A stretch of DNA of 64,000 nt from an uncultured bacterium (GTDB lineage Bacteria > Verrucomicrobiota > Verrucomicrobiia > Limisphaerales > UBA8199), in assembly GCA_963713735.1 (NCBI GenBank), contig CAVQND010000015.1, positions 8,095-72,094 of the forward strand, written 5' to 3'. Under the pieces are notes generated by a model, which worked only from the letters and a program-made list of their open reading frames with translations, had not been told where the DNA came from and ran no database searches. This document shows positions 22,298 to 59,049 of this stretch, one piece after another; within the stretch, counting starts at the first letter, position 1, and each line of letters starts with the position of its first letter. The translations under genes were made by a program, and so were the position numbers.

Positions 22298-22350
22298 AGC
22301 AGAGGGCAGGGGCTCGAGGGCAGGTCATGCAAGAGTCCGGCGCCGCTAAC

Positions 22351-22547
22351 GCGGATATTCCACAGCCTAAGCGCGGTACTGGGCTGCCGAAGCTGCGTAG
22401 CGCAGATTTCCAACCTGCTGTATCGCCGACTTCAAGTCGGCAGGCTGTACCTGGTTGGGAGCATGTGCGGATTGGAAATCCGCGATACGGCAGGCTGGAA
22501 GCCTGCGCTACGCCTTCCAGTTTGCGAAACCCGTGAAATATCCGGGC
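22351..22547. repeat. ~200-bp TIR-bounded MITE, copy 1 (inverted relative to the copy at 30826-31024)
   Basis: High similarity to the reverse complement of 30826-31024. Internal sub-repeats include gcaggctggaagcctgcgctac. The terminal motif gcccggatatttcac is intact at the right end and degenerate at the left. Confidence 0.8.
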
Positions 22548-22678
22548 CAAGACTTGCTTCCTGCCAGGGGCGACATTACTCTGCCAACGTGAAGGTGTTG
22601 GAACCAGTGCTGCACCGCCAAGCCCAAGCCGTGGCCACCGCCGGCGGTGTCGCCCCCCGGACGAAACGGTCTCGCTCC

Positions 22679-28959: not shown

Positions 28960-29142
28960 GTCACCGCCTCCGTCCTGCGCCGAAACCGACAAGAAACTGG
29001 CAAAATGTGCCCCTTGACGGTCCGGTCCTCCCCTGGTATCAACCGGCCATAATGAGTGAGAGCGAAAGCCAATTCTCCCTCACCCGCGCAGCGTCAAAAC
29101 CGGGGCGCGGCAAAAGACCAAATTCTTATCGGTCGAGAGTTT

Positions 29143-30613: not shown

Positions 30614-30825
30614 GTTTTGAGGCCAGGATTTCGTCCCCAGCCAGCCGGAACCTCCGCAGCGTGGTGTTGTCCCAGGCAGTCGGTCCCGTCCGCCGCCGTA
30701 ATGCACGCCGCCTCGGGCAGGGTCGCGCAGCACTACCAGGCGTTTGCAGCCAGACCCCTGGTTGAACTCGGCAAACCCAGTATCAGATGATACCCATGGT
30801 CAGATGATCCGCATGAACGGACCTG

Positions 30826-31024
30826 GCCCGGATATTTCACGGGTTTCGCCAACTGGAACGCGTAGCGCAGGCTTCCAGCCTGCTGTATCGCGGATTTCCA
30901 ATCCGCAGATGCTCCCGAGCAGGTACAGCCTGCCGACTGGAAGTCGGCGATACAGCAGGTTGGAAACCTGCGCTACGCAGCTTCGGCAGCCCAGTGCCGC
31001 TCTTAGGCTGTGAAATATCCGGGC
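30826..31024. repeat. 199-bp TIR-bounded MITE, copy 2
   Basis: 15-bp terminal inverted repeat gcccggatatttcac at both ends. Reverse complement closely matches 22351-22547. Confidence 0.85.
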
Positions 31025-31071
31025 TAAGACTCGGGCGGCTGCGGAAACGAAAGGGCCTCCGACCGTTCAGG

Positions 31072-37739: not shown

Positions 37740-38260
37740 AGCGCGCGCTCACCCGCGAAGCGGCAAAACCGGCGCGGCGGCAAAAAAGCAATTTCTTATG
37801 TGCAGCCTTCTGTCCTTTGACATGCTTGCAGGTGCAAGAGTATCAGATTTGGTGCAAGCGGAATTTCATAAAAAGTTGTTGGAGGACACCGCGACGGCCA
37901 CCGTTTGTGAACGGTTTATGCGCATTTAGCGGGGACGCAACCGTTGGTCAAAGATCGGACCCGAGACGGGGGAAGGCCGATGGCAAACTGACCCCGCCCG
38001 GTCTGCGGACTAGTGCTACGAGACCCCTGGAGAGTTCTCCGCCGGAACCCCTGAGAGCAGCTCCATGGTCTAAGTATCTTTGAGCAGCACCGCCACGCCA
38101 GCCAGGCGTGAGCGGGGAAAGGGGAGGCCAGTTGGTAATCTTGCACAAACAGCCGGTATCCCTTACCGCTGTGGTCCCACTTGAACCACTCCGGCCTACC
38201 CCCCGCCCCGGATCCTCCTTCAACCGCGCCGGCGACGCACCCTGGATTGAAGCCTCGCCC

Positions 38261-39733
38261 TCAGGCCTTGGCGCTACAGGAGTGTTGCGGTAAGGGCAAG
38301 GAAATTGAGTGGCTTTCTTGAACCATCGCGCGCCACTTTCCCAAGGCAGTATAGGGCGCAAAGACCTGGGCTAATGGGGCCTTGGACTGCCACTTGATTA
38401 GGAGTTTGGGCCAGAGTTCCAGGTAATAAGCCGCCCGCGCTGGGGCGGGGGACTCGGGCGCGTACAGGTCGGGCGGCAGGTAAAGGGTTTGCCGCTGCAT
38501 CAAGGATTTGCCCAGACCCAAGAGGTCTTTGGCCACCACGAAATCGGCATGGCTCTTGCGGGCCTGGACGTCTCGGTAACGTTGCTGGAGTTCAGGTGGG
38601 CCCATTTGCCCCATTTTATTGGCGGCTTGGACCAGGTAATTTTTGAGGTGATGATTACAGCGCTGCCAGACTCCCAAGACGACCGGAGCCTGGTCGGGGC
38701 CACCACTCTGCCTGGTGGCGGGAACGATGCCCGCATAGGAACAGAGCAAATCCAAGTTGGGTAATTGGTCCGGCGGCCCCAGTTCACTGGCCATGCCGGC
38801 GGCCAAGGTGACACCGATGCCGGCGATGGAAGTCAGGACCGCACCCGGGGTCTTGGCGAGCAAGGGGGCAATTTGACGATCCAAGCCGGTGATGACTTGT
38901 TGGAGAGATTGGCTTTGGTCGGCCAGGACTTTAAGTAGTTGCTGCCAGGTGGCCACATATTGGGTGGAGGGCGGCAGGACTTCACGGGCCAAAGATTGGA
39001 GGGTGGCAGCCGCCGTGGGGGCGTCGGGCAGGCCCTGGCGCTGGAGGCCCTCGATGAGGTTGCCGGTACGGCGCTGGGCAATTTGTGGAGCGCTAAAACG
39101 ATCTTCCAGCAGCCACCAACAGGCCGGAGTGAAAGGCGGGATGCCGCTCTTTTTGGGGTCCAGGAATTGGGGAAAGAGCCGGTCGACATAATTATGGAGG
39201 CGATTGGTCAGCGCCGTGGCGGAGGTGACGAAGCAATGACGTTCCCGGCACAGGTCGCGCAAGTGGCGGTAATCGTCGGCGACGGGAGGATTGAGTTTGC
39301 CGCGTTGTTTGAGCAGGCATTGAGCAATTCCCAGCAGGTCCAGGGTGTCATTGGAGGCTTGGAAGTTTACGCGTTGCTTTTTGGCTTCCCAGGCGTTGAC
39401 ACGAGCGACGGCAAAACCTTTGGCTCGGAGGGCGGTGATAAAGTTCTCGGCCCAAGCCGGGACATCCTCCCCGCCGAAGAAAGCGTGGGTGGACTGGAGA
39501 TGATGATGACGGCAAGTGTCGTCCAGTTGGGCGAGCGGGCCGGTTAAGCCGCTGGGAGAGTTATCCACGCTAAAAGCTTTCTTGAGGATATCGCCCACGC
39601 CATTGCAGAAAAGGACGGTGTGCTTACGCTTGGCATAGTCAATGGGAGCGCAGAGAACCCTGCGCGGATCCCCGGCCCGCTCAAACAGGTTGCGCAATTC
39701 GGGTTGGGGTTTAGCATAGATGGACGCAGTCAT
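38261..39733 (-). CDS. IS110-family (DEDD RuvC-like + Tnp domain) transposase/recombinase
   Basis: PIDYAKRKH..., ...SNDTLDLLGIA..., ...TSIAGIGVTLAAGMASELG... and ...SYAGIVPATRQSG... motifs typical of IS110/IS116/IS902 enzymes. Start taken at MTASIYAK (39733). Confidence 0.85.
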   Translation of the reverse strand: MTASIYAKPQPELRNLFERAGDPRRVLCAPIDYAKRKHTVLFCNGVGDILKKAFSVDNSPSGLTGPLAQLDDTCRHHHLQSTHAFFGGEDVPAWAENFITALRAKGFAVARVNAWEAKKQRVNFQASNDTLDLLGIAQCLLKQRGKLNPPVADDYRHLRDLCRERHCFVTSATALTNRLHNYVDRLFPQFLDPKKSGIPPFTPACWWLLEDRFSAPQIAQRRTGNLIEGLQRQGLPDAPTAAATLQSLAREVLPPSTQYVATWQQLLKVLADQSQSLQQVITGLDRQIAPLLAKTPGAVLTSIAGIGVTLAAGMASELGPPDQLPNLDLLCSYAGIVPATRQSGGPDQAPVVLGVWQRCNHHLKNYLVQAANKMGQMGPPELQQRYRDVQARKSHADFVVAKDLLGLGKSLMQRQTLYLPPDLYAPESPAPARAAYYLELWPKLLIKWQSKAPLAQVFAPYTALGKWRAMVQESHSISLPLPQHSCSAKA

Positions 39734-39739
39734 ACAGCT

Positions 39740-39968
39740 TGGTTCAAGTTGAGGCAGCGCGGTTTCGGCGCGTTGCCGATTAATCTTAACGGACTTGGAC
39801 TGATTAGCTTCCGCCAGCTCGTGGGTTAACACCACTGGCTGGCGGTCTCATTTGGGGGAAAAACTCTCAGAACCGGCCGAGGCCTGTCCCCTCGTTGGGG
39901 AATGGGTTGGCGGGCGAGCTTCGCCCGGGGGCTCGCCCGCCAACCCATTCCCCAACGAGGGTGAAGGT
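39740..39968 (-). ncRNA. Structured 5' leader of the IS110 recombinase (candidate bridge-RNA-type guide RNA)
   Basis: On the recombinase strand: 31-bp hairpin; hairpin CCGCCAGC...GCUGGCGG with inner GUGG/CCAC; 5-bp stem UAAUC/GAUUA closing the loop AGUCCAAGUCCGUUAA (plus 39786-39801); hairpin GGCAACGCG-CCGAAAC-CGCGCUGCC. The function is inferred from published IS110 biology. Confidence 0.4.
39889..39961. repeat. Perfect 31-bp-stem hairpin with 11-nt loop
   Basis: 39889-39919 (ccctcgttggggaatgggttggcgggcgagc) is the exact reverse complement of 39931-39961. Confidence 0.95.
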
Positions 39969-40012
39969 ACTAGTCCTGCCTGGTCAATGGATGGTTGGGC
40001 CGAGTAGTGATA

Positions 40013-40156
40013 GCAGACCCCGGCCGGGGGAGACCCCGGATGGTGCAAGCTCTGCCGTAAACGGGCGGGCCTGTCGGTGGCGCAAGTCATCGCCGGGGAC
40101 GGGCCAGCCGCTCTAGCCAACATGCAGGCCGCAACATTACGAGAAGACTGCCGCTC
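40013..40156 (+). ncRNA. Conserved ~145-nt structured module, copy A (paralog of 55521-55665); class unknown
   Basis: Shares with copy B an identical 28-nt block (ctctgccgtaaacgggcgggcctgtcgg), plus caggccgcaac and gactgccgctc. Closing helix GCAGA/UCUGC. Hairpin CCGGGG-GAGA-CCCCGG. The strand is tentative. Confidence 0.5.
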
Positions 40157-40246
40157 CGTTAATTAAAGGAGTCATTAAAGGAGTCAACCCATAGTATGGC
40201 TCATTGTTGTGTTGACTCTTGAGGGGGCGAGTGCGAAAAGAGGACC

Positions 40247-49327: not shown

Positions 49328-49506
49328 CAGGGCCAGTGACAAAGTTCTCCGCAAACCATTGTAGGAGACGACGTGAGGAGTCTCTGGTTGATTCTTGGGC
49401 ACAGCGAAAGCCTGCTCCCCTCGGAGGCCATTGATCAGAGACTCCTTACGTCGTCTCCTACAGTCAGGGAATAGGGCCCGTTTCGGCGACTTTGTCAGCC
49501 GCCCTG
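49328..49506. repeat. 179-bp palindromic MITE/REP-like element, copy 2 (same orientation as 2129-2306)
   Basis: Near-identical to 2129-2306 along its full length, with a handful of substitutions. Confidence 0.85.
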
Positions 49507-53411: not shown

Positions 53412-54635
53412 TCAGACGGCCAGGAGTTGCTGGACGGAAATGCCGCGCAACTCGAAGAGGCGGCGGATGGCGTCTTCGATGAGGTTGTTGGGGCAGGAGG
53501 CGCCGGCGGTGATGCCGACGGTGACCTTTCCCCGGGGGAGCCAATGGCGCGTCATGATTTCCGCGTGTCTGTGCTGGTCGTAATGGAGGATGGAATCGTC
53601 GGACTTCATCTTGGCGGCATTCTTGATGAAATAGGTGGGCAGTTTGGCCTCTCCCATTTCGGCTAGGTGGGAGGTATTGGAGGAATTATAGCCGCCGATG
53701 ACCAGGAGCAGGTCGGGCGGTTCGCGCAAGAGTTTTTCCAGGGCGTCCTGCCGGTCCTGGGTTGCGCCGCAGATGGTGTCGAAGAAGCGAAAATGTTCCG
53801 GCAGGGCTGATTCGCCGAATTTTCTGGCCATGGCCGCCTTGAGCCGCCGCTGCACCTCCTCGGTTTCGCCGCGCAGCATCGTGGTTTGGTTGGCCACGCC
53901 GATGGCCTGCAAATGAATGTCCGGGTCGAAGCCTTCCGAGTAGGCCCCCTTGAATTTCTCGAGGAATTCCTCTTTACGACTGCCGTGGATGATGTAGTCG
54001 CAGAGGTAATCGGTTTCGGCGAGCGTGAAGACCACCAGGTAATGGCCGGCGCCGCTGGCGCGCGCCTGGGAGGTGGTGGCCATGGTTTCTTCGTGCCGCG
54101 CCTTGCCATGGATGATGCTGGTGACGGAGTCTTTGGAGTACTGGCGCACGCGTTTCCAGACGCTCATCACGTCCCCGCAGGTCGTATCAACGAACAGGCA
54201 GCCCTTTTCCTCGAGTTTCCGGCGGGTGGAGACCTCGGTGCCGAAGGCCGGGATAATGACGATGTCCTCGGGCCGGAGTTGGTTGATCTCCTCATCCCGG
54301 GGATGGCCGGCGATGGTGACAATGCCCATGCGGCGAAGCTGATCGTTGACTTCCGGGTTATGAATGATCTCGCCCAGGAGGAAGATCCGCCGGTCGGGGT
54401 AGGCGCGGCGGGCGGCGTAGGCGAGGTCAATGGCGCGCTCGACGCCGTAACAGAAGCCAAATTCCTTTGCCAGCTTGATGGTCAGATCTCCGGCCGAGAG
54501 GATATGGCCGCTGGCGCGAATCCGTTCCACCAGGTCGCTGCGGTAATGCGAGAGCACCTGGGCCTGCACCGCCGCCATGATGTCAGGCCGGCGCAGATTG
54601 ACCTTCTGAGGCATTGGCGGGGCTGCCGTTGACAT
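53412..54635 (-). CDS. ispH: 4-hydroxy-3-methylbut-2-enyl diphosphate reductase (long-form IspH/LytB)
   Basis: ...EFGFCYGVERAI..., ...VDTTCGDV..., ...FDTICGATQDRQ... (three Cys ligand regions), ...GGYNSSNTSHL.... Confidence 0.85.
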   Translation of the reverse strand: MSTAAPPMPQKVNLRRPDIMAAVQAQVLSHYRSDLVERIRASGHILSAGDLTIKLAKEFGFCYGVERAIDLAYAARRAYPDRRIFLLGEIIHNPEVNDQLRRMGIVTIAGHPRDEEINQLRPEDIVIIPAFGTEVSTRRKLEEKGCLFVDTTCGDVMSVWKRVRQYSKDSVTSIIHGKARHEETMATTSQARASGAGHYLVVFTLAETDYLCDYIIHGSRKEEFLEKFKGAYSEGFDPDIHLQAIGVANQTTMLRGETEEVQRRLKAAMARKFGESALPEHFRFFDTICGATQDRQDALEKLLREPPDLLLVIGGYNSSNTSHLAEMGEAKLPTYFIKNAAKMKSDDSILHYDQHRHAEIMTRHWLPRGKVTVGITAGASCPNNLIEDAIRRLFELRGISVQQLLAV

Positions 54636-54690
54636 ACTGGGCAGAATCTAGCACAGCCCCCCGGAGCGTCCAGCACAAAGCCTCCATTTC

Positions 54691-54786
54691 CAGCAATTCT
54701 CATTTTGGGGCCCTGCCGCATGAATGCGGCAGCGAGGCGCCGAAGCGAGAACGGCCGGGCTCCGAAAGCCAAAATGAGAATTGCTG
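54691..54786. repeat. 96-nt element: 18-bp perfect inverted repeat enclosing an 8-bp hairpin
   Basis: cagcaattctcattttgg (54691-54708) is the exact reverse complement of 54769-54786. Inner hairpin ctgccgca-tgaa-tgcggcag (54713-54732). Confidence 0.8.
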
Positions 54787-54799
54787 CTCCATTTCGTTA

Positions 54800-54828
54800 T
54801 TGCGCAACGCTGCGGTTGTGGGATACTT
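54800..54828 (+). promoter_or_regulatory. Sigma-70-like promoter candidate for tRNA-Pro
   Basis: ttgcgc, a 17-nt spacer, then atactt, ending 14 nt before the tRNA 5' end. Pattern match only. Confidence 0.3.
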
Positions 54829-54841
54829 GCACTTCCGGCTC

Positions 54842-54919
54842 CGGAGCGTAGCTCAGCCTGGCTAGAGCACTTGGTTTGGGACCAAGACGTTGCAGGTTCA
54901 AATCCTGTCGCTCCGACCA
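54842..54919 (+). tRNA. tRNA-Pro (anticodon UGG), CCA encoded
   Basis: Hand-folded cloverleaf. Acceptor CGGAGCG/CGCUCCG, D stem GCUC/GAGC, anticodon stem CUUGG/CCAAG with loop UUUGGGA, 5-nt variable loop, T stem GCAGG/CCUGU with loop UUCAAAU, discriminator A, then CCA. Confidence 0.9.
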
Positions 54920-54998
54920 CCACTTTACACCGGAAAACACGGCAGGAACGTCACGCGCGGCAGAAGATTGGGGAGTCAGGACGCTGAAACGAAGCCAA

Positions 54999-55334
54999 TT
55001 GAAGGCCAAAGCCGCCCGTTACACGAAACTAGTGGAGTGGAGCGACGAGGACGGTTGCTTTGTCGGCAGCGCCCCGCCGCTAATCGGCCCATGCTGTCAC
55101 GGCCGGGACGAGGCCAGGGTGTACGCGCAACTCTGCCGGATCGTCGAGGAGTGGATTGAAATTCTCGAAACTGACGGGCGCGAGCTGCCCGATCCCCTGG
55201 GCAAGGCCAGCGATTTCAGCGGCAAGTTTGTGTTGCGGCTTGAACCGGCGTTGCACCGCCGCCTGGCAGCCAAAGCCCTCGCCGCCGGCGAAAGCCTGAA
55301 CAGCTTCTGCGTCAAAACGCTGTGCAAAGCATGA
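54999..55334 (+). CDS. hicB: HicB-family antitoxin (no hicA partner found)
   Basis: ...YTKLVEWSDEDGCFVGSAPPLIGPCCHGRDEARVYAQLCRIVEEWIE... (HicB fold) plus C-terminal RHH-type ...GKFVLRLEPALHRRLAAKALAAGESLNSF.... The start is uncertain (TTG 54999 or CTG 54984). The ORF as called overlaps the tRNA. Confidence 0.65.
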   Translation: MKAKAARYTKLVEWSDEDGCFVGSAPPLIGPCCHGRDEARVYAQLCRIVEEWIEILETDGRELPDPLGKASDFSGKFVLRLEPALHRRLAAKALAAGESLNSFCVKTLCKA

Positions 55335-55432
55335 CGCAAAAAGGGCTCGCCACGAAAACGGAGGCCGAGAAATGGTTTACCGTCTCTCCGCAGCAGCCCG
55401 GCAACGTGGTCCAGCTTGGAAGAACCGCCTGA

Positions 55433-56300
55433 GAGACTAGCAGCCTGTCGGACTTAGAAACCGATTTCGGTGGCTGGACCCCATCACCAGATCCCGCTGC
55501 TCACAAAAATCAAGAAAAAAGCAGACTCCAGCGAGGGGAGCCCCTGGCTGGGGCAATCTCTGCCGTAAACGGGCGGGCCTGTCGGCGGCCCAGAGCCGCG
55601 GACGGGGGCTGGTGAGCCGCTCCAGCCAACGTCCAGGCCGCAACGTCAACAACTGACTGCCGCTCAGAAAGCGCTTCCTTCTCTGAAACCACTGAGGAGG
55701 GCGTCTTGGAACAGCCGAACCGTGATAGGAACGGTGAAGGCTCTGATGACCGGGAGATGAGCGATCAAATGAACTCCGTCAGCCGACGGGGTAGAGGTCG
55801 CGGCATGGACGGAAGGTATGTCAAAGCAAAGAAGGGAAGGTGAGCCGAACGGCCCGCGAGGGCAAAGACCGCCCAGAGCAAGCCGAACAGGCCCAAGCTG
55901 CACGGAGTTCGCCAGACCGCCGCATCAGGCCGTAGTAGCGTTTGCAGGCGAGGGGACAAAAAACCGTACTGAGCCAAGGGCCCGTGGGCACAGCCGCGAT
56001 CCGATACATCTGGACTCTGAGCCAGACACGGAAAGGAACGCAGCCTCCGCGTCAAACGCCGCCGGGGACGGCTGCGGAAGGGCGCGGAGCGACAAGGCTG
56101 GCTGACGACCGTACCGGAAAACTCACCCTGCGGGATGAACAGAGGGGGTGGGGGAAACGTGGGCAGCACCCGATGGCCATTCGCAACGATGCTCGAAAGG
56201 GCAGAAACACACCAAGCCATTGGTCCAAGCCGTCCGCGCCTCCACTCCACTCGACCAGTCGTTGGTCAATAAAGAAACTGCCGCCCCGCGGCGATTTCTG
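55433..56300 (+). ncRNA. Candidate large structured RNA / giant structured leader (class unknown)
   Basis: No credible ORF in any frame across ~980 bp. Purine-rich plus strand with GNRA-capped helices (55852-55863 GCGA loop, 56191-56202 GAAA loop), a tandem-G.A symmetric helix at 55713-55742, pseudoknot-compatible segments at 56039-56088 and an 11-bp hairpin at 56273-56299. Confidence 0.45.
55521..55665 (+). ncRNA. Conserved ~145-nt structured module, copy B (paralog of 40013-40156)
   Basis: Same order of conserved blocks as copy A. Helices keep their position but change sequence: GCGGC-CCAGA-GCCGC here vs GGCG-CAAGUCAU-CGCC in A. The outer helix CUCCAGC/GCUGGGG needs a U.G pair, which is valid only on the plus strand. 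Confidence 0.5.
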
Positions 56301-56313
56301 GTAAGCTCCCGCC

Positions 56314-57844
56314 ATGAAGTTCAATAAGTTCGTTTGGGATCTCTACAGTCAATCCACGCGCGGCGAGAAAGCCCTCGAAAGATTCTCGCGGCTGAACAAC
56401 GAGTTCATCGAACCTTGGTGCCGAGCCATGCAGTTTGAGTTCTTCGGGGAGTTCAAGGAGAAATGTGGACGCACTAAACTGGATATTGATGTTCCCCAAT
56501 TGGTGCGCGACGCAGTAGCGCACATGAAGTTCGAGGAACTCAAGGACGCGACTCGGCACTACAAGGAGACTCTGATCTCGAAAGGCATCCCGTTCGAGAT
56601 GGAGGACAAGACCGGGCAGAAACAAGTGATCTTCGAGTTTCCCGGGGCCAAGGGAGATTGGTATGACTACGTGGCAGCTGTCTCGCTTGGCCTGTATCAG
56701 GCACAGCCCGAGTATTTCCTGTCTTACAATTTTCGGACCAAATTCAACCAAGTGGAAGAAATCCATGCAGAGTTTAACATTCCGCTGCCTCCTGTCCCCG
56801 GCAAATCGGACAAGCTGGCGCGTTGCTCTTACTACGCTGCCATTAACGAGGTCTGGCAAAAGTTCCGCAAACGCCACGGCCTCACGCCGGTTGAGATGTG
56901 CGCATTCCTCTACGACTTCGCACCTCAATTCACCACGCCGATGGATTCCAGTGACCTGCCAACGCCGTCAAAGGTATGGCTCATCACAGGAGGATCATGG
57001 GATATAGAAACCGCCGAGAAGGCAACGCCCAAAACAACGAGCATGTGGGGTGGGAATCCCGCCATTCGTCGCGGAGACATTTTGATTGCTGTACCTTGTC
57101 AGTCCGCGCAAGGCCATAGATTCCATCTGGCGGGCCTGTACGGACGGATTCATCGATCCCTTCTTTCATTATCACGGCACAGTGTGGATCTGCGCACAAA
57201 TCAGGACGGTACACGTAAGCTTCTCCGAGATCAAAGCCGACCCATTGCTTTCCGCAAAGCCGGCTGTGAAAGGCAACTTTCAGGGACCAAGCGGCAAGGC
57301 AGCGTTCACAGTCGAAGAATACGAAGCCATCTTGGCGATCATGAAAGGCAAAGGGCAGGACATTTCAGCTCTGCCACGAATCTCGGCTTCGAATTACCTG
57401 CCGTCCGTTGAGCTCCAAAGCGAGCGGGATGTCGAGATTCACCTGATCGAGCCGCTCCTTGAGCGGCTTGGGTACAAATGTTCCGACTGGTTAAGGCAAA
57501 TGCCTGTCAAAATGGGGCGTGGTGAACGGAACTACCCGGATTGTGCTTTCGGGGCAAATCCGAAACGTGGCGAGGAGAGCGCGAAGATGGTTCTCGAATC
57601 CAAGTTCCAACTAAGCGCACGGAGCGAGTTCACTGAGGCGTTCTACCAGGCGAAATCCTATCCGCTCCGCCTCCAGTCCAATATGATGGCTATGGCGGCG
57701 AAAGAAGGCGTTTGGGTCTTTGCGCCGGATAGCGGAGTTTTCGACATCAAGAAGTTCGTCCATAAAGGCTGGGGCGAGTTGAACCATCCCGATCACTTTC
57801 ACGAAATCCTTCAATTGATCGGTCGGGATCGAATTCTTGGTTGA
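56314..57844 (+). pseudogene. Three-domain protein: unknown N-domain + PUA-like (EVE-type) domain + HsdR_N-type PD-(D/E)xK nuclease domain; one frameshift near 57083-57088
   Basis: ORF 56314-57411 joins ORF 57086-57844 (...RRGDILI / LYLVSPRKAIDSIWRA...). C-terminal ...ERDVEIHLIEPLLERLGYKCSDW...GRGERNYPDCAF...MVLESK matches the type I restriction HsdR N-terminal nuclease-like module. Visibly lower GC. Confidence 0.55.
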
Positions 57845-59049
57845 GCCAAGCGTCGCCAATAGGCCCAGTCCACGCCAAGAAGCAATGTCTCGCCCGGCTT
57901 AACGGTAGCGGCCTCCTGCAGTTTGCCTCGAACCTTGCCATCGAAACCCAGCCGCTCAACGGCCGGTGTTCCCGCAACGGGTTCTGGGGAATCGTTGATG
58001 ACCCAGACACATATCTTGTCAGGCGTCCGCTCAAAGGACACCAACACCGGTTCGTACGCGCGGCGCATGAAGTAGAAGGCAATCTTCGGCTCCAGGTAGT
58101 AGTCCAGGACGCTGGAGTAGATCATCGGCCAAGCGTCGTTGAACCGCCAGACGATGTTGCCCCAGCAGCGCCGGCTGCCGGCGGGCTCGTCATCGGGGAC
58201 TCCGCGGCGCTCACGTTCGATGCGCTCGCGCAGGTATTCACCGTGCGCGGTGCCCAGCACGCGGATGAGTTCCTCGGCGGAGGTGGGGTCGCAGTAGTCC
58301 TGGATCGGGCCGATGCGGTCCCAGGTCGCGATGCCGGTGGAATGGTAGGCCCAGGCCGGCGGCCAGGCGGGCTGGCCCGGCTTGCGGACGGCGGGACTGA
58401 ATCCCGCCGGCCAGAGTTCGCCCTCGCTCAGGAACCGCCTCATGCTCGAGAGCGCAGGCACGCTGGCGCGCAGCACTTCCGAGCCAAACAACGGAAGCGA
58501 GGCGCCAGGGGTGAAGTTGATCGTCGTGTAATCGTGCCAGTCGCCCTCGAGGCCCGTTGCCCGTCGGGCCGCTGCCGTAGGGCGAACTGGTATGGAACAG
58601 GCGCGTCGGATCGAGCCGCTTGCAGGCATCGGGCATCAGCCGCTCGAAAATCTCGCGTTTGGGCTCCGGGACATTTGTCGTTGAAGTCCAAAGATATTGC
58701 TCATTGCCGCCGCACCAAAGCAGGACCGAGGGGTGATTGCGCAGGCGGCAGCATTCGTGCCGATGTGCGGGTCGGGAATCAAACCGCGCGCGAGCAGCAG
58801 TTCGTGAATCTGAGCCGGCATCCGCGCCGGCATCCAGGACTTGTCCGGCGAGATGGCCTCGCGGGCCAGTGCCGCCACGTCCGGTTTGTCAGTATCGAGT
58901 TGCCGGACCGACCACCCGTCCCGCAAGGGAACTCGTCTCCGCAGGACCGTGTCGTCGTTCTCCGCTGCCATCGACAGCAGGGCGAGGGCTAGCATCACAA
59001 CGGTCAAAGCACCTGGTGCCTTGCATGGAGAATTCCGGGCTGCGTCCAT
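57811..59049 (-). pseudogene. GH2 beta-mannosidase-like gene with internal deletion and frameshifts
   Basis: N-terminal ...RVPLRDGWSVRQL...WMPARMPAQIHELLLARGLIPDPHIG... (58636-59049). Mid/C-terminal pieces lie in other frames (...PDACKRLDPTRLFHTSSPYG..., ...GDWHDYTTINF...). The total length is far below the ~850 aa usual for the family. Confidence 0.6.

Follow-up and report, generated by a model that had tools for sequence, protein, structure and literature searches.

Probable remnant of an ORF-less group II intron, decaying and truncated at the 5′ side, in a Limisphaerales genome

Introduction

Group II introns are self-splicing ribozymes that are also retroelements. Their defining features are GUGYG...AY ends, pairing between exon-binding and intron-binding sites (EBS/IBS), a triad in domain V and a bulged A in domain VI; most bacterial copies are truncated or inactivated (PMC4424553), and introns without an open reading frame (ORF) are a recognized sub-type in bacteria (PMC4424553, PMC2882425). 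Published surveys detect introns by their reverse transcriptase (RT) gene or by the Rfam model RF00029 (PMC8919778), and ORF-less introns are overlooked only if their domain V departs from known ones (PMC4424553). Here we analyze a stretch of 64,000 nucleotides (nt) from an uncultured Limisphaerales bacterium (Verrucomicrobiota; contig CAVQND010000015.1, positions 8,095 to 72,094), hereafter the window, in which positions 55520-56255 of the + strand are very probably a decaying copy, lacking the 5′ end, of an ORF-less group II intron. The Limisphaerales family to which this copy belongs would fall in the detection gap left by RT-gene and RF00029 surveys, and no relevant publication came up in a literature search for group II introns of Verrucomicrobia or Limisphaerales.

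Among described introns, the nearest parallel is the TeI3 family of Thermosynechococcus elongatus (Mohr et al. 2010, PMC2882425), whose ORF-less introns have proliferated with diverse EBS/IBS specificity and are mobilized in trans by the RTs of related introns (PMC2882425). The Limisphaerales family resembles TeI3 in being a ribozyme-only intron present in many copies, with families that differ in EBS/IBS specificity, in that most insertions lie outside genes and some copies have been hit by insertion sequence (IS) elements, and in that mobility is presumed to need an RT in trans. It differs in its host, in domains V-VI that are not recognized by RF00029, in an insertion of ~88 nt in domain VI of the main subfamily, and in its main target, which is a dispersed motif close to gene starts. 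Moreover, T. elongatus has known ORF-containing driver introns and ORF remnants in domain IV, whereas here neither an RT gene nor an ORF remnant was seen in 131 related loci.

Other described RNAs offer partial parallels. The C.te.I1 intron of Clostridium tetani, like other independent ORF-less introns of bacteria, is also an ORF-less group II intron with non-standard splice-site or catalytic elements (PMC4424553), but C.te.I1 is single-copy in a gene with alternative splicing, whereas the Limisphaerales family is multi-copy and intergenic. The large RNAs GOLLD, ROOL and OLE (PMC12286853) share with it a length of several hundred nt, an abundance of GNRA-type loops and a conserved structure; in contrast to them, the present family has intron boundaries, exon-binding sites that covary with the flanks and a match to group II domain I, has no match to their Rfam models, and is not recurrently adjacent to a tRNA. 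Full-length relatives of the window copy match the whole of the Rfam model RF02003 (group-II-D1D4-4, clan CL00102), and the window copy differs from them in lacking the first matched part.

Results

A family of large structured RNAs

The region of interest, 55335-56313, lies between the stop of a HicB-like ORF (Pfam HicB; stop at 55334) and the next plausible start codon, ATG 56314. An earlier sequence-only reading had described it as an ORF-free stretch of about 1 kb, purine-rich on the plus strand and apparently a large structured RNA, and these descriptions hold. No credible ORF is present: the longest encode 161 amino acids (aa) on the - strand and 120 aa on the + strand, both are Arg/Pro-rich, and neither has a Pfam match. 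Codon periodicity is absent, with a GC spread over the three codon positions of at most 0.14 in 150-nt windows across 55370-56270, compared with 0.24-0.48 in the flanking genes. The + strand contains 25.3 % A, 31.9 % G, 29.9 % C and 12.9 % T, i.e., 57 % purine. Taken as a single sequence it folds only mildly better than shuffles (z = -2.7 on the + strand and -1.4 on the - strand).

The family was seeded by an exact-pattern scan of species-representative genomes, which gave seven true matches (four Verrucomicrobiota/Limisphaerales metagenome-assembled genomes, MAGs), and a second pattern scan of metagenomes gave at least 120 loci from peat, soil and lake sediment. After chaining of BLAST hits there were at least 149 copies or fragments, at least 48 of them with both ends, from Limisphaerales/Verrucomicrobiota MAGs (carriers include MFD03726.bin.2.170, Limisphaerales palsa_1440 PLZQ01 and SRP192927_co7_213) and from peat, soil and lake metagenomes; no family match was found in a plasmid collection (blastn) or in viral contigs (pattern scan). 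By BLAST, 55520-56259 is 91.5 % identical to the copy at related locus L005 over 744 nt and 78-82 % identical to those at L009 and L008, and it also matches L006; these copies sit in unrelated flanks.

Structure was assessed on an alignment of 23 non-redundant full-length copies with pairwise identities of 72-96 %. The RNAalifold consensus contains 211 base pairs, whose cells are standard pairs in 97.0 % of cases versus 92.2 % in shuffles, and 66 pairs have changed on both sides versus 31.3 ± 3.4 in shuffles; none of 500 shuffles reached 66, and sliding the pairing partners reduced the number to 12-19. Many conserved G-U pairs (for example, columns 218-358, 222-354, 517-541 and 764-813) would read A-C on the other strand, so the RNA strand is the + strand of the window, as had been tentatively called. 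The homologues of 55520-56255 are a large structured RNA on this strand.

Individual helices that had been picked out by eye fared unevenly in the alignment. The GCCC-GCGA-GGGC helix (55852-55863), the GCUC-GAAA-GGGC helix (56191-56202) and the helix around GAUAGGA (55713-55742) are kept in the 23 homologues; the U.G pair of the second is UG in 15, UA in 6 and CG in 2, and the loop of the third is EBS1. Of the interleaved segments at 56039-56088, the UCCGCG/CGCGGA pairing is likewise kept, but no pseudoknot is needed because GGCUGCG pairs with an inner CGCCGCC and the helices are nested. The suggested hairpins at 56212-56223 and 56253-56267 are not conserved pairings, and the latter straddles the 3′ end of the element.

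Group II intron features of the family

The family starts with GUGCAG and finishes with CUCGAC, head-to-tail junctions fix both ends to the nucleotide, and 32 full-length copies have identical exact ends. The 3′ AY boundary is thus present, and the 5′ GUGYG consensus is matched at four of its five positions. Within domain I, RF02003, a model of 138 positions that covers just part of this domain, is matched end to end in 24 full-length copies with 47.6-66.5 bits; 22 of the 24 reach the gathering score of 49, including the copy at L005 (55.9 bits). Examples of full-length copies are L005 2509-3324 (minus strand) and L020 11811-12628.

The exon-binding sites covary with the DNA into which the copies are inserted. 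Between the EBS1 loop and flank positions -1 to -9, the mean complementary run is 6.45 nt versus 4.30 ± 0.21 when loops are permuted among copies (maximum 4.96, n = 1000), and the covariation spans at least nine target specificities, listed here as IBS1 (DNA) and EBS1 (RNA):

TTCCTAT and AUAGGAA, the main specificity, in the flank of most copies
CGCTCCTAA and UUAGGAGCG, subfamily
CTTCTG and CAGAAG, subfamily
ATTCTGT and ACAGAAU, subfamily
GATGCG and CGCAUC, subfamily
GGACTGA and UCAGUC, subfamily
CATCCTGT and ACAGGAUG, subfamily
AAATGCT and AGCAUUU, subfamily
CGCGGTGTA and UACACUGCG, subfamily

The EBS2 segment, directly 3′ of ...CUGCCGCCCCGAA, covaries with flank positions -14 to -9, with a mean run of 5.16 versus 4.50 ± 0.15 in permutations (maximum 5.0).

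At the 3′ end, domain VI has a 13-bp terminal helix from which an invariant A, six nt short of the end of the intron, bulges out; the main subfamily and a compact one of ~776 nt differ in this helix by multiple compensatory changes (GAGGGGGUGGGGG/GCCUCCACUCC and GAGGGGACUGGGG/CCCCAGUCCU); in the main subfamily the domain also holds the ~88-nt insertion, which is structured. A strongly conserved, 33-nt domain V-like hairpin, CCGUAC-CGGG-GAAAA-CUCG-[CC bulge]-GUACGG, occupies the expected place, and its lower helix covaries, CCGUAC/GUACGG being replaced by CCGUGU/GCACGG at L019, L072 and L083. We take its AGCCGUA...GUACGG core to be shared with canonical domain V sequences. Domain IV is ~130 nt long and contains no ORF in any copy.

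Several observations weigh against assignment to group II introns. The fifth nucleotide is A and not the G of GUGYG. Of the 23 copies, 10 have AGC as the domain V triad and 12 have AAC, and its partners at the hairpin base are not Watson-Crick. RF00029, which represents domains V-VI, was unmatched at E ≤ 10 in the window and in about 40 family members, as it was in dedicated 201-nt and 121-nt searches over the 3′ ends of the family; RF00029 is a detection model and not a defining feature of group II introns. Neither the window nor the 131 loci contain an RT-like ORF (ORFs of at least 150 aa, scanned for Y/F-x-D-D); the few Y/F-x-D-D ORFs found are not RT-like. A parent intron with an ORF, or an RT nearby, was therefore rejected as a candidate on this motif scan and on translation of the sequence after two divergent copies, which encodes ScpA and not an RT. 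The window copy itself has no Rfam match, because the RF02003 match begins in the 76 nt that this copy lacks; around it, Rfam at gathering thresholds and at E ≤ 10 finds only tRNA-Pro. In the sequence-only reading no group II intron signature had been recognized by eye, yet full-length relatives match RF02003 and the window copy is 91.5 % identical to L005: a direct search of Rfam leaves the window copy unassigned, and the known family is reached through its relatives. Judged on sequence and covariation, the family appears to be a divergent new addition to group II introns and the window feature a dead fragment of it.

Anatomy and decay of the window copy

A search of the 64 kb with the family profile (nhmmer) found just two copies, 55520-56255 and one split by an insertion sequence. 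The first comprises the following parts, all on the + strand:

55520-56255, intron fragment, from intron nt 77 to the last nt of the ~815-nt element (nhmmer E = 2.7e-215 against the family profile)
55520-55835, remainder of domain I (alignment columns 77-401); the 5′ strand of its closing helix is gone
55671-55676, EBS2 equivalent GCGCUU (UUGCUU in intact relatives), by covariation with flank -14 to -9 in relatives
55725-55731, EBS1, AUAGGAA, in the loop of the 55713-55742 helix and complementary to the TTCCTAT flank of intact copies
55836-55921, domain II (alignment helices 19-21), with GCCC-GCGA-GGGC (55852-55863) at its tip
55926-55984, domain III, GCCGUAGUAGCG...CCAAGGGCC (alignment helices 22-23)
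55987-56090, domain IV region, two hairpins and no ORF (alignment helices 24-28)
56106-56136, domain V-like hairpin, equivalent to alignment columns 692-725
56142-56252, domain VI, a 13-bp helix with a tip insertion of ~88 nt that includes the GCUC-GAAA-GGGC hairpin (alignment helices 30-33)
56249, branch-site equivalent, a bulged A that is invariant in the family
56253-56255, GAC, the last three intron nt; the 3′ boundary after C56255 is placed by the junctions at L076 and L088 and by the point at which flanks diverge

In the domain IV region, helices 27-28 include 11 pairs with compensatory changes, and at the place equivalent to domain III the L005 copy has a weak match to RF01998 (group-II-D1D4-1).

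This copy no longer has a 5′ splice site or the initial 76 nt of domain I, and it retains the EBS1 and EBS2 segments without a cognate 5′ exon. Truncation removes 30 of the 211 consensus pairs and a further 13 are broken. Domain V has a 2-nt deletion in its upper helix and a C-C mismatch in its lower helix, and 22 private changes fall at 317 otherwise invariant columns, compared with 0-10 in the other copies. Its domain V is damaged and no other copy in the alignment has as many private mutations, which makes the window copy a relic; having in addition lost its 5′ splice site, it can presumably neither splice nor move. At present it would at most form ~740 nt of structured RNA that is not translated, provided that transcription extends through the interval from hicB to the downstream gene.

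As at cognate homing sites, the first letters of the 3′ flank are CAGT, which mildly favors an insertion that was full-length at first, 5′ of the next gene, and lost its 5′ part later; the alternative would be incomplete synthesis of the cDNA. Since both 5′- and 3′-truncated copies occur in the family, the pattern of truncation favors neither route. A simple deletion that left the homing motif 5′ of 55520 was rejected, since the best local alignment of the motif to the upstream sequence was equalled or bettered by 125 of 300 shuffles.

Alternative explanations

Two of the alternatives keep the intron ancestry and give the fragment a cellular function. On the first, the truncated intron would have been recruited to control the nuclease-like gene at 56314, as a long structured 5′ leader or as a barrier to transcription: fragment, hicB and downstream ORF share one orientation, 58 nt separate the fragment from the ATG, a terminator-like hairpin (56279-56293) stands just 5′ of the start codon, and intact copies usually lie 13-63 nt 5′ of genes. 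However, flanks and downstream gene alike are confined to this locus, and other copies precede unrelated genes; the giant structured leader proposed in the sequence-only reading lacks support. The downstream gene, moreover, is broken into two overlapping frames, and the private changes at conserved positions, the most of any copy, suggest relaxed and not new constraint; we regard co-option as quite unlikely. Slightly less probable still is a new class of large ornate non-coding RNA of the GOLLD/ROOL/OLE kind, derived from a group II intron but domesticated and no longer an intron, with a function in the cell. The large and strongly conserved structure, domains V-VI that escape RF00029, the absence of a nearby RT and the persistence at no fewer than ten distinct loci of mini-derivatives without most of domain I (see below) would fit such a class; the sequence-only reading had likewise drawn a comparison with large ornate RNAs. 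Against it stands the covariation of EBS1/EBS2 with the flanks over many specificities, a signature of reverse splicing into DNA that a cellular RNA gene would not be expected to carry, together with sharp intron-like ends and a branch-site A. Copies are, moreover, interrupted by IS110 and IS5 elements and often truncated, and the covariance models of GOLLD, ROOL, OLE, HEARO and raiA gave no match at E ≤ 10 in 54600-56700 or in a full-length relative. Adjacency to tRNA-Pro, which had been read as meaningful, is incidental, with one tRNA in 35 related loci.

The remaining alternatives deny that ancestry, and we give them next to no credence. A strand composition with A far above T resembles that of some coding regions of the window, and ORFs of 120-161 aa are present, as might be left by a decayed protein-coding gene; this is opposed by the lack of codon periodicity and of any Pfam match, and by homologues that differ by indels of 1-3 nt and by paired compensatory changes. 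An IS110 remnant or bridge RNA was our first suspicion, since the only related segment revealed by comparison of the window with itself, 40012-40156 (79-85 % identical to 55520-55665), adjoins the ORF of an IS110-family transposase. Uninterrupted copies refute it: in four other genomes the two sides of the IS are contiguous, so the shared segment is the target and not part of the IS. The same segment belongs to the RF02003 match, and there is no transposase near 55520; an origin from IS110 is thus about as hard to credit as a decayed gene, and the group II intron copy stands as by far the best account of 55520-56255.

Proposed life cycle and standing of the family

For intact members, the steps that follow are modeled on the known group II pathway. 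The intron would be transcribed inside a host RNA, usually within the dispersed motif just 5′ of a gene, its RNA would fold into six domains, and it would excise itself with the bulged adenosine of domain VI as branch point. With an RT supplied from elsewhere, it could then reverse-splice into DNA sites that pair with EBS1 and EBS2 of domain I and be copied into DNA.

We offer more tentatively, as a possibility that may well prove wrong, that the family is an overlooked group II lineage: it would have no intron-encoded protein, a non-canonical domain V base and an expanded domain VI, for which reasons surveys by RF00029 or by RT gene would be blind to it, and it would have reached high copy number in Limisphaerales by homing near gene starts, with EBS-less mini-derivatives at many sites. 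If so, the family would have been mobilized by an RT or RNA acting in trans, or would have spread through gene conversion. The window locus itself is of little importance and should be annotated as a dead retroelement fragment and not as a new RNA class. The family would matter more, as an abundant ORF-less group II lineage of uncultured soil and peat Verrucomicrobia that escapes detection by RT gene and by domains V-VI, and as a second natural example, besides Thermosynechococcus, of introns that proliferate while their target specificity diversifies, here with a main target that is itself a multi-copy motif near gene starts. A covariance model built from the alignment would allow MAGs to be masked or annotated for the family.

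The homing motif and a second copy interrupted by IS110

The family homes mainly to a dispersed intergenic motif, ~65-80 nt long, that consists of TCACCCGCGCAGCG, a GC-rich hairpin and GCAAAAAGCAAATTCCTAT, with CAGT directly after the insertion point; it can also be written as CCAATTCTCCCTCACCCGCGCAGCG, hairpin and GCAAAAAGCAAATTCTTAT, again followed by CAGT. Unoccupied motifs lie 13-63 nt 5′ of the start codons of unrelated genes, so intact copies of the intron are normally found at this distance upstream of genes. The motif may itself serve as a promoter or 5′ leader. The motif and the second intron copy occur in the window, and the motif elsewhere, as follows:

29051-29129, + strand, unoccupied homing motif (...CAAATTCTTAT, then CGGT), 13 nt 5′ of the start codon of a HAD-hydrolase
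37800-37838, + strand, second intron copy, nt 1-39, with a homing motif at 37748-37799 directly 5′
37839-39972, - strand, IS110-family insertion sequence, transposase ORF 38261-39835 (Pfam DEDD_Tnp_IS110, Transposase_20)
39973-40158, + strand, second intron copy, intron nt 40 to ~225 (reference 135-320), 3′ side cut off (nhmmer E = 2.1e-59)
L020 9125-9189, L041 503-581, L051 3842-3777 and 3611-3557, L054 2568-2648 and L006 767-817, further homing motifs

In four other genomes 37838 is joined directly to 39973, and 37748-37838 and 39965-40158 are contiguous; the IS110 element has therefore inserted into the second intron copy. It sits within a hairpin of that copy which reads GGUGCAAG up to the insertion and UCCUGCC after it. 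The non-coding end 5′ of the transposase, the place of bridge RNAs in IS110 elements, holds a perfect 31-nt inverted repeat (39889-39919 and 39931-39961). Directly after the cut-off end of the second copy, 40159-40190 is a tandem duplication of ATTAAAGGAGTC (two units).

Truncated, tandem and internally deleted copies

Among the matches listed, 18 copies are truncated at the 5′ side and 27 at the 3′ side; about 14 of the latter 27 are only apparently so, their 3′ parts having diverged. Head-to-tail copies joined exactly, with ...CUCGAC followed at once by GUGCAG..., are present at L076 1-1055, L088 1009-1040 and L062, and these may be genuine tandem insertions or may have arisen as artefacts when a high-copy repeat was assembled. 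The ends of many metagenome contigs fall within the intron element, and the repeats visibly break contigs. At L080 303-1215, an intron copy is interrupted at reference position 387 by an element that by eye encodes an IS5-like DDE transposase.

In mini-derivatives, the short hairpin CUGCCGUAAACGACAG replaces most of domain I, EBS1 and EBS2 included. They are carried by L101 (2250-1631 and 5983-5455), L111, L071, L022, L055, L058, L123, L116 and others, and the same junction recurs at at least 10 distinct loci, two of them within one contig; a second type of deletion (reference 173-464) is found at no fewer than four loci. For the mini-derivatives, the conservative account would be gene conversion between dispersed copies, as against real mobility. 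ORFs with the motif HVM(S/N)RGNRRQDIF(L/V)DD, which we take to be typical of transposases of the REP-associated tyrosine type (REP, repetitive extragenic palindrome), lie near intron copies at L040 3178-3885, L090 3137-3637 and 7577-8071, and L096 1500-820.

Flanks of the window copy

The features that surround the intron fragment between hicB and the downstream gene are as follows:

55335-55519 (185 nt), no strand assigned, unrelated upstream spacer, with no homologue in the 131 related loci and no family match
55331-55432, + strand, 33-aa ORF MTQKGLATKTEAEKWFTVSPQQPGNVVQLGRTA, whose ATG overlaps the hicB stop codon (ATGA)
56256-56313 (58 nt), + strand, 3′ flank, starting with CAGT like cognate homing sites and unique to this locus

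The 33-aa ORF has no family match in NCBIfam or PADLOC and may be what remains of a gene that was lost when a rearrangement cut off the 5′ part of the intron. No homologues of the flanks 54920-55519 and 56260-57900 were found in the related loci. The hairpin at 56273-56299, 14 nt 5′ of ATG 56314, had been pointed out in the sequence-only reading and is indeed terminator-like. The nuclease-like gene that follows (56314-57844; GC 52-55 %) is split into two overlapping frames, 56314-57411 and 57086-57844, and is probably a frameshifted pseudogene or affected by a sequencing error; in searches of Pfam, NCBIfam and PADLOC the sole family signal for the downstream ORFs was a sub-threshold match of a 252-aa ORF to Pfam HSDR_N. 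Contrary to the earlier reading of a lower-GC islet, the stretch is not GC-poor, with 61.8 % versus 62.4 % for the whole window, and the low-GC part begins at ~56200 and is part of the downstream gene.

On the upstream side, an 18-bp perfect inverted repeat, CAGCAATTCTCATTTTGG ... CCAAAATGAGAATTGCTG, around 60 nt lies at 54691-54786 between ispH and tRNA-Pro and came up as a spurious match to mir-322. No att-type direct repeat of the tRNA end was found on the downstream side.

Other repeats in the window

Repeats elsewhere in the window include two 203-nt inverted repeats (94 % identity) at 22347-22549 and 30824-31026, separated by ~8.3 kb, and a direct repeat of 179 nt (97 %) at 2128-2306 and 49328-49506, separated by 47 kb. 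A palindromic unit of ~30 nt, TGTAGGAGACGACGTGAGGAGTCTCTGAT, recurs in both, at about 2160, 22195 and 49360, and together they look like a family of repeats of the REP or MITE (miniature inverted-repeat transposable element) kind. Inverted repeats of 45 nt (93 %) at 61-105 and 1918-1962, 1.8 kb apart, are accompanied by a second pair at 242-279 and 1884-1921; these are probably the ends of another insertion sequence.

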